From positions 1 through 64,000 of IMG/VR virus record IMGVR_UViG_3300047159_000056: a stretch of DNA of 64,000 nt; one strand, 5' to 3'. Each line of letters begins with the position of its first letter. The first letter of the stretch is position 1. This document shows positions 26,418-51,362 of this stretch, one piece after another. Made by a program: the position numbers and the translations under genes. The notes below the pieces were generated by a model, which saw nothing but the letters and a program-made list of their open reading frames with translations, ran no database searches and was not told the DNA's origin. This DNA is from a virus. Lineage: Duplodnaviria; Caudoviricetes.

Positions 26418-26506
26418 AAAAAAACGAGGAAGCTTAATCATCACGACCTTACTTCCTCTAGAGATTTCAAAATAACATAAACATAAATGCTTCTTCATTA
26501 GTAAGG
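26418..26506 (-). ncRNA. orphan copy of the array-type small RNA
   Basis: Promoter CCTTACTAATG, 34-nt variable part, GAGGAAGTAAGGTC-GTGAT-GATTAAGCTTCCTC-T7. Confidence 0.7.
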
Positions 26507-26932: not shown

Positions 26933-27046
26933 AATAACTATAATTTTTGTTGTTAATCAAAAATAAGGATTTACCGGGATATGACCTAGAATCCTTATTA
27001 GTGGATAAAGGGTAAGTTGGTTTTTAAAGACTTGCTCTTTTATTCT

Positions 27047-27120
27047 CCACTGTAAATCCGAATGCCTCAACGTGGCGCAGTGGTCTAGTGGTAGCACTAA
27101 AGTTGTGAAGCCAAATTCGG
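27047..27120 (+). ncRNA. candidate HDV-like double-pseudoknot RNA
   Basis: P1 CCACTGT/GCAGTGG, P2 CCGAAT/ATTCGG, P3 GCC/GGC, L3 TCAACGT, P4 TAGTG/CACTA, J4/2 GCCAA. Confidence 0.5.
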
Positions 27121-27319
27121 CAAAGATATGTAGACTATCCTATAGCTTACATATTAGAGTACTTAGAGGAAACTTTAATAGACATGAAAGTGTTTGAATA
27201 AAATTATAACAAAATTAAATAAAAATGAAACGAGAATGTATTAATTGTTTAGTTAAATTAGAAAGACAAGAACAGATAATAGATTCAGTCTCATTGTTAT
27301 TAACTAAAAATATATTATT

Positions 27320-46593: not shown

Positions 46594-48642
46594 ATGATTA
46601 AAAAAATTATTAATGTTCCTCCCGATATTAGATATATCAGTGATTGGACAGACTTTTCTCAGAATATTGATGAAAAGGATAAAAAATGTATTATTGATAA
46701 GAAGATTCCTGGATGTGGATTTACTGAATGGGTATTAACTAATAATCAAGATGTTATCTTATGTAGTCCAAGAAGAATTCTTTTACAGAATAAAACTGAT
46801 CAACATTTGGGAGAGGTATTTCTTGTGATAAATCTATTTGAAGAAGTAGTAGATTATGGGAAAGATTTAAATAGACCAGCTAAAGGGTCTAGTAAAATTA
46901 AGGTTCCATCTGAAAATGATAATAAAAAGAAAAGTGAATATTTTAAATTATTATCTAAACAAATTTTAAATTACATAGATTTAAGACATGCTGGTGGATT
47001 TCCTGCTAAGATCTTGGTTACATATGATAGTTTTCACCTAGTTAAAGATATACTAACCTTTCAGAATTTTGAATTATTACCAAAATTTCAGGTGGTTGTT
47101 GATGAGTTCCAAAGTCTGCTAGTTGATTCTAAATTCAAAGCTACTACTGAATTAAAATTTATTAGTGATCTTCAACATATAAATAGGGTGTATTATATTA
47201 GTGCTACTCCTATGATGGAAAACTACCTAGACCAAATAGATGAATTTAAAGACCTACCTTATTATGAATTAGATTGGAATGCTCTTCAACCAGGTAGAGT
47301 TGTTAAGCCAAATCTAAAGGTAAGATATGCTAGCTCTATAATAACATCGGCTAAAAAGATAATAAGCGATTATAAAACTGGGAATTTTGAAAAAACCTAT
47401 TTATATAACGAAACTGGTAGTCCTGTTGCTATAGAAAGTAAGGAGGCTGTAATCTATGTAAACTCTGTTAATAATATTTGTAATATAATAAAAAAGTGCG
47501 AACTATTACCAGAGGAGTGTAATATTCTTTGTGCTAAGACTCCTTATAATGATAAAAAAATTTCTAATAAATTGGGAAAAGTATTTAAAATAGGAAAGGT
47601 ACCATTAAAGGGAGAGCCACATAAGATGTTTACATTTTGTACTAGAACTGTCTACTTAGGGGCCGACTTTTATAGTACAAATGCTAGAAGTTTTATCTTA
47701 AGTGATGCTAGTATAGAAACATTAGCAGTAGATATTTCTCTAGACTTACCTCAGATTCTTGGTAGGCAGAGGTTATCAGAAAATCCTTGGAAAAATTCAG
47801 CTACTTTCTATTATAAACCCTTAGCCGCTAATAAGAAAATAACTCAGGATGAATTTAATAATATAATTCAAAAAAAGTATAAAGATACCTTAAATTTAAT
47901 TTCTGGTTATGATTCTGCAAAGTCAGATGAAGTAAGATCAACCCTAATGGATAAGTACAAATTAATTATAGAAACATTTAATTACAAGGATGATTATCTA
48001 GGTTTAAAAGTATTAATTGATAAAATAACTGCTGAAAAACTTTATAGTCCTGTAGTCAATAATCTAGTTATGCTGGCTGAACAGAGAGCTTTTGATATGC
48101 AGCAGATTGATTATGCTGATAGATTTACAGTATTCAATGCTATAAATAGAAATAATATAAATACTGACGATGAAATGAAACAAATTAGTGAGTTTTTTAC
48201 AACTTATAATAGTTTGCCTAGTTTCTTTGAAAAATTAAAATTTTTATGTGAATCTAATTTATCTGGAGTAGTATTGGAACAGGTATTATTACAAATAAAA
48301 GAGCCACATTTTAAAGAATATTATGAAGTTCTTGGACCAAAAAGAATGAGAGAACTAGGATACAATATAACTTTATTTAAGAAGGAATTGAATATAGTTA
48401 CCTTTGATAAAAATAAACTCTATATAGAAATCTATCTTAATTTTAAGGTTGGAGAAAAATATACGAAACCTGAGATAAGAGAGAAATTATCTGAGATTTA
48501 TAATAAGGTAGGATATAATGCTTATCCGAAAGCAACAGACTTAGAAAATTATTTTAATATTAAAAGTATATCTATATATATTAAAGAAAATAATGATCTA
48601 AAAAAATACAATGGGTTTGAAATTTTAAGTGTAAAAAAATAA
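46594..48642 (+). CDS. SF2 helicase-like protein with atypical Walker A
   Basis: PGCGFT (I), VVDEFQ (II), ISATP (III), TRTVYLGADF (V), QILGRQR (VI). Confidence 0.75.
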   Translation: MIKKIINVPPDIRYISDWTDFSQNIDEKDKKCIIDKKIPGCGFTEWVLTNNQDVILCSPRRILLQNKTDQHLGEVFLVINLFEEVVDYGKDLNRPAKGSSKIKVPSENDNKKKSEYFKLLSKQILNYIDLRHAGGFPAKILVTYDSFHLVKDILTFQNFELLPKFQVVVDEFQSLLVDSKFKATTELKFISDLQHINRVYYISATPMMENYLDQIDEFKDLPYYELDWNALQPGRVVKPNLKVRYASSIITSAKKIISDYKTGNFEKTYLYNETGSPVAIESKEAVIYVNSVNNICNIIKKCELLPEECNILCAKTPYNDKKISNKLGKVFKIGKVPLKGEPHKMFTFCTRTVYLGADFYSTNARSFILSDASIETLAVDISLDLPQILGRQRLSENPWKNSATFYYKPLAANKKITQDEFNNIIQKKYKDTLNLISGYDSAKSDEVRSTLMDKYKLIIETFNYKDDYLGLKVLIDKITAEKLYSPVVNNLVMLAEQRAFDMQQIDYADRFTVFNAINRNNINTDDEMKQISEFFTTYNSLPSFFEKLKFLCESNLSGVVLEQVLLQIKEPHFKEYYEVLGPKRMRELGYNITLFKKELNIVTFDKNKLYIEIYLNFKVGEKYTKPEIREKLSEIYNKVGYNAYPKATDLENYFNIKSISIYIKENNDLKKYNGFEILSVKK

Positions 48643-48683: not shown

Positions 48684-49520
48684 CCTTATATATGGAAAAT
48701 TAGAAGTTCCTAAATATTATTTGTTGGTAGAGGAGAAGTCGTGAGATTAGTTCCTCTACTTTTTTAATCATCTTAAATCCTTACTAGTGGAATAGGATTT
48801 ACCATTTCAATCAATTTTAATGAGTAAATAAGGGATAGTTGTGAAACTAGTTCCCCTATTTTTTCGCCCTCTCAAAAACACCTATAATCCTTATATGTGA
48901 AATAAAGAACCATCTTTAATTTTTTGCCCGAAAGGGGCGATTATTTATATTATAGGGGATAGTTGTGAAACTAGTTCCCCTATTTTTTTTTCACCCTCTC
49001 AAAAGCACCTATAATCCTTATATGTGAGTAATATGAATATCGTATCACAATTTTATACAGAGTACAGGGGAAAGCGGATCGTGATGATTAGCTTTCCTAT
49101 TTTTTTTCAACCCTCCTAATTCCTTATAAGTGAAATTAAGAAGAGATTCAATTCATGTTTTTTAATTTGTCCCGAAAAGGGAGTTATTATTTTTTAGGGA
49201 GAACAGATCGAGATGATTAGTTCTCCTATTTTTTTTAACCTTCCTAAAACACCTTAAATCCTTATATGTGAAAGTAAAAGAGATTTCATATTGTTTGCCC
49301 ATTAACGGGTGAATTTTAATTAATAATATTAATAATCTCAGTAGGAGATAGTCGTGATGATTAGTTCTCCTATTTTTTTTTTCGTCCCCCTTAGAAATAC
49401 TTTAAATCCTTATATGTGACAGAGATGTCATTCTCCATAATAAATAACTTCCAAGAGAGGAAGTGGAAAATTAAATGTTTTTTAGGGGATAGTTGTGAAA
49501 CTAGTTCCCCTATTTTTTTT
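48684..49520 (+). ncRNA. tandem array of 7 promoter-driven small RNAs with a conserved 3' hairpin
   Basis: Units 48684-48765, 48779-48864, 48889-48991, 49016-49107, 49122-49236, 49260-49382, 49408-49520. Confidence 0.82.
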
Positions 49521-49563: not shown

Positions 49564-49743
49564 ATGAAGAGAGTAGAAATAGTGCTTGAGTCATTTTTAG
49601 CAATTGACATAGTTTTAATAGTTCTTAGATTATTTAGTGTAATTAGTTATCCTCCAGTCTGGGTACTCCTATTACCTATCTTAGTACCACTAGTAATTAT
49701 GGGTTTAATGATGTTTTATATATTTATTAGATTAGTAAAATGA
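49564..49743 (+). CDS. 59-aa membrane protein, similar to 63220-63426
   Basis: IVLRLFSVISYPPVWVLLLPI vs LVLRLTGVIGWSYWWIFSPI; promoter at 49532. Confidence 0.65.
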   Translation: MKRVEIVLESFLAIDIVLIVLRLFSVISYPPVWVLLLPILVPLVIMGLMMFYIFIRLVK

Positions 49744-50924
49744 GTAAGGTAGAAGAATTTTTATTAGGTAAGGATAGTTTAGATTTAGCTCAGCAGAAAG
49801 AGTTAAAAGGTTTCCTGCAGAATGAGTCTAATTATCCTAGGAAATTAGTCTTAGATTTTATTATAAAGTCTGCTATGGCTAGTGTATCTGTAGTACCTGG
49901 GGAAGGTTCTAGTGAATTAATTGTCTTAGATAAGGAGATAACTGAGCTAAATGGTCTTGGTGACTTAGCTAATATGGTTATTTCTGGTTTTCCTGATAAG
50001 GTTGAACTAGATAATTTTCTTATTAAGTTTAGGAATATTACTAGTCATCTGGATAAGATTAGGAGAGGATTTAGTGGAAGGGATGCTACTAAGAGGGTTT
50101 GCACTGTTGATATTGGTGGTAAACGGATTATAACAGAGCAGGTTCTTCTTATGAATTCTAGCATGTTTGGCACTAAGAATCTTCTCTTAATTATAGATAT
50201 GCAACTAGATTTTATTAGTGGTAGTCTAGCTGTTCCTGGTGGTAGAGATGCTGAGTCTAATCTAACAAAGTGGATAGACATTAATAGGAATAGGATTGAC
50301 AGTATCTTATTATCTAGGGATGATCATTACCCTTCTCATATAGGGATGACTTGTTCTTGGTTAGGGAAAGATGGAAATATAGTAGAGCCATTTATTACAA
50401 TTAGTTCTAGTCAGGTAAAGGATGGTACTTATACACCAAGATTTATGAGTAAGGAGGGTGCTATATCTTACTTAGAGGAAATAGAGAAGAGGGGATATAC
50501 ACATACTACTTGGCCTTTACATTGCATCAGGGGATCTAGGGGTCAGCAATTTAGTGAGGACTTATTACGATCTCTTAGGTGGTGGTCAATGTCTCATAAA
50601 GGGGAGCATTACTTAATTCTTGACAAGGGAGAGAAGGATGATTCTGAGATGTACAGTATTTTCTCTTACTTAAATGGTTATGATCCTTCTTATACAAAAA
50701 ATTGTTTAGATAATATAAGTTCTGGCAATTTTGATAAGATATTTATTGCCGGCTTAGCTAAGGATTATTGTGTAGCTAATAGTGTAAAGGATCTCTTAAG
50801 TGATTCTAGATTTGACGGAAAGCTTGTATTCTTAGATTCCTGTATGGCGTCTATTAATACAGAGTCCCCTAGTCTTAGCATTTATCTTGATGCTATAAAG
50901 AATCATTCAGATCAGATGGCATAG
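49740..50924 (+). CDS. pncA: nicotinamidase (isochorismatase family) with ~140-aa N-terminal extension
   Basis: IIDMQLDF, GSLAVPG, DDHYPSH, WPLHC, DKG, AGLAKDYCV. Confidence 0.85.
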   Translation: MSKVEEFLLGKDSLDLAQQKELKGFLQNESNYPRKLVLDFIIKSAMASVSVVPGEGSSELIVLDKEITELNGLGDLANMVISGFPDKVELDNFLIKFRNITSHLDKIRRGFSGRDATKRVCTVDIGGKRIITEQVLLMNSSMFGTKNLLLIIDMQLDFISGSLAVPGGRDAESNLTKWIDINRNRIDSILLSRDDHYPSHIGMTCSWLGKDGNIVEPFITISSSQVKDGTYTPRFMSKEGAISYLEEIEKRGYTHTTWPLHCIRGSRGQQFSEDLLRSLRWWSMSHKGEHYLILDKGEKDDSEMYSIFSYLNGYDPSYTKNCLDNISSGNFDKIFIAGLAKDYCVANSVKDLLSDSRFDGKLVFLDSCMASINTESPSLSIYLDAIKNHSDQMA

Positions 50925-51225: not shown

Positions 51226-51304
51226 CCTTATATATGTTAAATATGTTAATGTTTTTTTTTGAAAACGGGAGGAGAGCAGGTCGTGAGATTAGCTCTTCTT
51301 TTTT
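51226..51304 (+). ncRNA. orphan copy of the array-type small RNA
   Basis: CCTTATATATG, U-rich segment, GGAGAGCAGGTC-GTGA-GATTAGCTCTTC-T6. Confidence 0.7.
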
Positions 51305-51362
51305 GCTCCTTGTTTCTCTCTTAATCCTTATAATTGAATAAAAAAAACAAAAAAATTTAATT

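Follow-up and report, generated by a model that had tools for sequence, protein, structure and literature searches.

The window considered here is the first 64 kb of a phage record (G000) of 207,396 nt, with a GC content of 32% and an estimated completeness of 56%. At positions 48684-49520 it harbors seven consecutive units on the plus strand, all of which had been listed in an earlier note on this DNA and each spanning about 82-123 nt from the start of its promoter to the end of its T-tract. The promoter motif (CCTTAywwrTG) starts at positions 48684, 48779, 48889, 49016, 49122, 49260, and 49408; it is the same used by the protein genes, as had been proposed, since of its 60 occurrences in the 207-kb record most lie before protein genes. 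The units embed no substantial ORF, the longest one starting in the block being of 35 codons on the plus strand and of 46 codons on the minus strand. Upstream of the array, a gene (46594-48642, +) codes for a 682-aa protein of a multi-copy family of this phage clade, with several paralogues per genome across the clade and thousands of homologues; no Pfam or PHROG match was retrieved for it, and a weak phage match makes it helicase-like. The same gene lies 5' of the array in a sister species, and nothing was seen tying it to the RNA system. The downstream neighbour (49740-50924, +), coding for a nicotinamidase-like protein, served as a synteny marker; no PADLOC model matched the neighbours of the array.

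The proteins of the window record are also carried by a 340-kb contig, and the relatives are phages of 340-430 kb; the array phage is a jumbo phage of the 340-kb class. Its DNA was detected in runs from bioreactor sludge and wastewater belonging to many studies. The phage gene starts are A-rich and without Shine-Dalgarno sites, the promoter is similar to the Bacteroidota -7 box, and an IS605 element in a record overlapping G000 shares 86% identity with an IS605 element of a Parabacteroides phage. These sequence features, taken together, suggest that the host probably belongs to the Bacteroidales; a search for the host through the IS605 DNA did not retrieve any match from sets of 185 and 261 genomes. 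Elements of this type were also observed within and beside units: an IS605-type end junction in G000 substitutes the 5' part of one unit, which is intact in a second record, G002 (L008 8950-9080 versus L009 4717-4820), and a complete IS605 with a frameshifted tnpB lies directly behind another unit (L071 2990-4700).

Unit 1 (48684-48765, promoter at 48684-48694) has a 5' part that is anti-AUG only via G-U wobble, and its 3' hairpin (48727-48759; model score of 38 bits) has a GUGA loop and an unpaired AG and is followed by a T-tract. A promoter at one end and a 3' hairpin with a T-tract at the other are found in the remaining six as well. In unit 2 (48779-48864), an anti-AUG CAT (48803-48805) is followed by a U-rich run, and the reverse complement of the 5' part reads M-V-N-P-I. 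The CAT of unit 3 (48889-48990) is located at 48911-48913 (M-V-L-Y); unit 4 (49016-49106; GUGAU loop) has either an anti-GUG (CAC, 49046-49048) or a wobble anti-AUG (CGT, 49041-49043). Unit 5 (49122-49236; GAGAU loop) has a CAT at 49154-49156 followed by U6, unit 6 (49260-49382) has it at 49287-49289 (M-K-S-L-L-L), and unit 7 (49408-49520) at 49436-49438 (M-E-N-D-I-S). The apical elements of the seven hairpins are those previously quoted, and two more copies occur in the window, at 51279 (+) and 26448 (-). They belong to two solitary units with array-type promoter and hairpin, i.e., unit 8 (51226-51307, +; 41 bits), with a weak anti-start signal, and unit 9 (26419-26506, -; 44 bits), with a CAT close to the 5' end (M-L-L).

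Units 1, 2, and 4 have a single hairpin, which is the terminator. The second small hairpin ascribed to units 3, 5, 6, and 7 is present (48924-48940, 49170-49182, 49293-49314, and 49447-49464, respectively, all +), but the loop of unit 3 is of five nucleotides (GAAAG) rather than the GAAA first read. The loop is GAAAA in unit 5 and AAGAGA in unit 7; the latter belongs to another middle loop that recurs (AAGMGW; seven units in all, unit 7 among them) and that had been overlooked. The middle hairpins fall into two loop classes, i.e., an AAGMGW hexaloop (seven units, those of the sister species included) and a GAAAR pentaloop, which we take to be boxB-like. In addition to units 3, 5, and 7, they were observed in the L071 array and at L010 2280-2300, and they are possible candidates for a second handle. 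Most whole units fold better than shuffled sequences (z from -1.6 to -3.7), whereas the predicted accessibility of the first 35 nt is only 0.35-0.63, a point against a freely available seed.

Other RNA features were observed in this phage. Many small-gene cassettes have a leader that opens with a hairpin, its loop being either AATAGTG or AATAATG (window 42138, 42352, 42753, 44125, and 45293 on the plus strand, 25543 on the minus strand; L008 1291-2709 and 8626). This hairpin is a candidate translational operator; its stems include the last TG of the promoter, which suggests that the transcript starts there. Further promoter-led stretches without ORFs lie at L008 1812-2060, window 26993-27200, and L007 1400-1650 (-), the first being a structured candidate RNA of 250 nt whose richness in GC sets it apart from the remaining genome.

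The 3' hairpin is built of an outer purine/pyrimidine stem and an inner stem of 4 bp (R-U followed by three pairs that covary), capped by a GNGA loop that may include a fifth base; the AG left unpaired on the 3' side shows a conservation of at least 90%. The compensatory changes reported for the stems hold in the analysis of 27 hairpins, with both-side changes at nine of the ten pairs and 89% of the cells pairing. None of 500 shuffles reached the observed level, a test inflated by the relatedness of the 27 hairpins, which are paralogues, and slid controls dropped to 35-61%. Furthermore, two mutually compensating substitutions were observed in the outer stem of unit 7 in one strain. The motif does not serve as the ordinary terminator in this species, in agreement with what had been noticed in the window: it was found in none of the 32 gene-ending terminators versus 12 of the 15 promoter-led ones (Fisher p 9e-9, joined phage sequence), and the units score 29-53 bits with the covariance model, other terminators at most 26. 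In some distant relatives and in hosts, a hairpin of this kind merely ends protein genes. Rfam did not retrieve any match for the units or for the host-genome hairpin matches (see below) at gathering and E-value thresholds; BLAST of the units against phage records gave no match, and hairpin-pattern searches of viral and metagenome collections gave only G002 or nothing.

The end of G000 is also covered, at 99.7% identity, by G002, which extends the genome and adds arrays of five and three units, so that 21 distinct units are harbored in the 274 kb of the two records combined. The window array is nearly unchanged in three strains. The sister species, whose flanking proteins are 58% and 73% identical to those of the window species, carries three units at the syntenic site and three elsewhere in 21 kb, and its 5' parts show no recognisable sharing with those of the window species. 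The syntenic site holds units of this kind in the strains and in the sister species, in the latter with no genes, which speaks against eroded gene cassettes, a possibility raised by the earlier note. The unpublished genome G096 underlies none of the statements made here. More distant relatives (47-53% identity) harbor one to five promoter-led units each, with a hairpin of the same type, and three simpler units are conserved in about 35 gut-type phage records. L264 (G1034) and about 35 gut-type records have a longer unit in which several internal hairpins precede the common 3' hairpin; it adjoins tRNA genes, is almost invariant among strains, and has no clear anti-start.

Most of the 5' parts, when read backwards, show an A-rich leader, a start codon, and three to seven codons, as in a Bacteroidota gene start. 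The idea was formed on the seven window units and then tested on units found later, using a matrix derived from 218 Bacteroides starts, with dinucleotide shuffles as the control. The window units score 4.55 versus 1.64 for the shuffles (0/300), the 20 held-out units of the same and the sister species 1.63 versus 0.10 (4/300), and all 32 held-out units 1.78 versus 0.41 (0/300); the 12 units of distant relatives alone are not significant (26/300 shuffles). The score in the sense orientation is about 0, distant relatives excepted, and the results are alike with a matrix built on phage genes. Moreover, a CAT followed by at least five T is found in three of the seven window units, in six of the 20 held-out ones, and in none of 71 other promoter leaders. 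The anti-start lies mostly 10-26 nt past the promoter motif, and about a third of the units are without a clear one. In some units the mirrored frames have stop codons three to seven codons in; therefore, pairing must be imperfect. Unit 7 has a C>T strain variant in the seed, and the four strain polymorphisms found in seeds are all compatible with one fixed target via G-U pairs, one of them implying a GUG start; few in number and all transitions, which are common anyway, they lend weak support to such pairing. What stands of the guide and scaffold reading previously proposed is a variable, guide-like 5' part, ORF-less units running from promoter to terminator, and a covarying hairpin.

The hairpin model R1 found matches in at least 25 of 61 Bacteroidaceae genomes, with up to 41 bits, about 107 candidates being scored per genome. 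Behind host genes that we take, by recognition of their sequences, to be amtB-like and glnA-like, the 3' UTRs show the same loop and the unpaired AG. The long 3' UTRs of these and other host genes (L250 1499-1600 on the minus strand, L255 735-832, L256, and L251) end in a GNGA hairpin, and U-rich segments with a CAT are present in several of them; they are candidate 3'-UTR-derived sRNAs of Bacteroidaceae, absent from Rfam. Many other host matches lack the AG and are plain terminators of protein genes with a GNRA cap. Such caps are rare in ordinary Bacteroides terminators (three of 68), and no match above 21 bits came from 400 kb of one Bacteroides genome. The best host match, a FopS-like locus scoring 41 bits with the phage hairpin model (L248), is located after a sigma-ABfr-type box, and 27 of its 35 positions equal the FopS seed consensus (taken from PMC11697453).

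GibS and FopS have an unstructured 5' seed over start codons and a terminator (PMC7366714, PMC11697453). The phage units resemble the FopS family and GibS of Bacteroides thetaiotaomicron in having their own promoter, an AU-rich single-stranded 5' seed that would lie across start codons (a statistical signal in the units, for which no actual target was found), a Rho-independent terminator, a length of 65-115 nt, and many paralogues (PMC11697453, PMC7366714); the FopS-10 primer suggests that a GNRA cap is present there too. The AU-rich single-stranded 5' part followed by the terminator hairpin is present in the units, with only moderate accessibility, and the phage motif is similar to the sigma-ABfr promoter (TAnnTTTG), with a few exact copies and most deviating. 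However, FopS and GibS are host-encoded and dispersed and share one seed (R1) with overlapping targets, whereas the units are phage-encoded and arranged in tandem arrays, each with a different seed, with turnover between species and extra middle hairpins. The R1 seed is absent from all units, the 5' parts of which all differ; thus, they are not members of FopS/GibS. The claim that the system is undescribed holds for the arrays, of which no published description was found in a search largely of open-access literature, but not for the architecture, which is that of a known host sRNA class; the scaffold is therefore not unprecedented.

On the whole, it appears fairly probable that the units represent a battery of GibS/FopS-style trans-acting antisense sRNAs blocking the translation of Bacteroidales host mRNAs. 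According to the anatomy, each unit would be transcribed from the common phage promoter and would stop at its own intrinsic terminator, giving RNAs of 70-115 nt. Their AU-rich first 25-35 nt would pair imperfectly, with G-U pairs, across the A-rich leader, the start codon, and the first codons of the target; from the statistical signal computed for the 5' parts we infer such pairing and the ensuing repression. Pairing at the start region would block initiation, as for GibS and FopS, because Bacteroidota have A-rich leaders in place of Shine-Dalgarno sites. The GNRA-capped 3' hairpin with its unpaired AG would copy the hairpin type of host sRNAs and 3' UTRs, to which its similarity was computed; it would stabilise the RNA and might recruit a host RNA-binding factor, or it may give only termination and 3' stability, with no protein binding. 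New units would arise from a duplicated hairpin-terminator-promoter block while the 5' part turns over; owing to this turnover, which was seen between two species, each phage species would have its own target list. The targets would most likely be host genes hindering infection, which is a guess. PreS of lambda and VpdS of VP882 are likewise phage RNAs acting on host mRNAs via the host RNA machinery, but they are single Hfq-dependent RNAs from temperate phages of Proteobacteria, with neither arrays nor a common scaffold with variable seeds (PMC12197685).

About 1,000 genome searches found no host target, because the host genome is lacking. Matches of the array to 401 Bacteroidales genomes by BLAST were mid-gene, intergenic, or on the wrong strand. 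The pattern of a gut-phage guide matched 18 of 201 Bacteroidaceae genomes, similar to the reversed control and with no true start, and that of unit 7 gave 90 matches in JGI metagenomes, none with extended pairing at a plausible start. The exact 20-mer of unit 2 retrieved five chance matches only from GTDB, a loose pattern search for targets gave only noise, and the guides against 1,839 start windows equaled the shuffles. PNPase, considered as a target of unit 2 on the basis of Bacteroidales N-termini, gained no support: no pnp starting with M-V-N-P was found in 401 Bacteroidia genomes (few Bacteroidales among them), and a Bacteroides PNPase starts with M-I-N-P-I, versus the mirrored M-V-N-P-I of unit 2. 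The RNA runs gave a few contigs, at a depth of 2-3, over units 1-3 and equally over the neighbouring genes; two of these runs are probably DNA.

The units might instead be decoys or generic dampers, host-sRNA mimics that titrate a host RNA-binding protein (e.g., RbpB) or pair loosely with many A-rich starts, a reading consistent with the host-like hairpin, with the failure to find a specific target, and with RRM proteins being present in hosts and no RRM gene being found in the phage sequence examined. VpdS does compete for Hfq (PMC12197685), a protein absent from Bacteroides (PMC13750123). However, a decoy does not need 21 different 5' parts, nearly unchanged among strains, with mirrored coding parts that differ between units, and the RbpB CLIP peaks on FopS lie in the 5' part and not in the terminator (PMC11697453); we consider this explanation unlikely.

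It is quite unlikely, moreover, that the guides silence phage mRNAs, whether those of the phage itself, encoded in the part not sequenced (about 65 kb out of 340 kb lie outside the sequence analysed), or those of rival phages and mobile elements. The phage antisense RNAs known to date, c4 included, mostly regulate phage genes. Among them, sar and OOP do so (PMC12197685), and, like the units, the c4/CI, sar, and OOP RNAs of temperate phages are short antisense RNAs blocking translation starts; their targets, however, adjoin them in the phage, whereas in 274 kb of phage sequence none of the 21 guides had a convincing partner and no self-target exceeded the shuffles. In G1031, a 93%-complete relative, the sole match to the one guide tested was the sRNA gene itself, with no second site, and no Rfam C4 match was retrieved.

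As for guides of an RNA-guided protein, i.e., crRNA/sgRNA mimics (a Cas13b-type spacer plus 3' repeat, or vsgRNAs) or guides of a putative phage effector, the order of guide then hairpin fits, and phages do encode vsgRNAs and crRNA-like RNAs, which copy a host RNA scaffold, add a guide, and silence host genes (10.64898/2026.06.01.729453; 10.1101/2024.10.29.618823). These, however, direct Cas proteins to DNA at promoters (that of cas9 in the case of vsgRNAs) and originate from CRISPR repeats or tracrRNA (10.64898/2026.06.01.729453; 10.1101/2024.10.29.618823), whereas the units have no CRISPR-derived part and their guides mirror start codons, not promoters. Neither a fixed repeat nor uniform spacers, as in a CRISPR array or Racr, are present, no Rfam CRISPR (at gathering score) or tracr match was found, and the repeat:anti-repeat stem followed by a tracrRNA tail of vsgRNAs is absent, the first hairpin having no such tail; the hairpin sequence varies, and the guide-to-hairpin distance varies by about 40 nt. 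Cas1, Nop, and RRM genes were not found in the phage records: the Cas1 search of G000, G002, and G1031, which are incomplete records, agrees with the earlier exclusion of CRISPR, and PF01798, the Nop domain of Tas (TIGR-Tas), was not found in three records, a search that a divergent Tas could escape. We regard this reading as very unlikely. Most improbable are empty promoter-terminator cassettes or eroded small genes acting as recombination modules with a functionless AU-rich fill, since, although one-gene cassettes with the common promoter abound in the phage and the near-identical hairpin of units 2, 3, and 7 is a sign of duplication, gene cassettes have other terminators, the fill is similar to the antisense and not the sense of gene starts, the stems covary, and the syntenic site of the sister species has three such units in place of genes.

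Returning to antisense sRNAs against host mRNAs, it is possible, though doubtful, that they represent a renewable programmable silencing, in which host gene starts are captured in reverse before a constant handle, with a putative Bacteroidota RNA chaperone recognising the GNGA hairpin and its unpaired AG; if this were true, the guides would amount to a list of the host genes important for infection, and the missing chaperone could be traced through the hairpin. The phage sRNAs known so far come as single genes; a set of about twenty, sharing one scaffold but each with its own address, would amount to a knock-down library built by a phage. Given a host genome, one could read from the guides which of its genes (defence, RNA decay, or metabolism) the phage must silence; cultured hosts may exist for the roughly 35 gut-type phage records with simpler units. 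The scaffold would be a natural template for programmable knock-down in Bacteroidota, which to our knowledge have neither Hfq nor ProQ, and the hairpin, being common to host loci, would represent a bait for the protein assisting sRNAs in this phylum.
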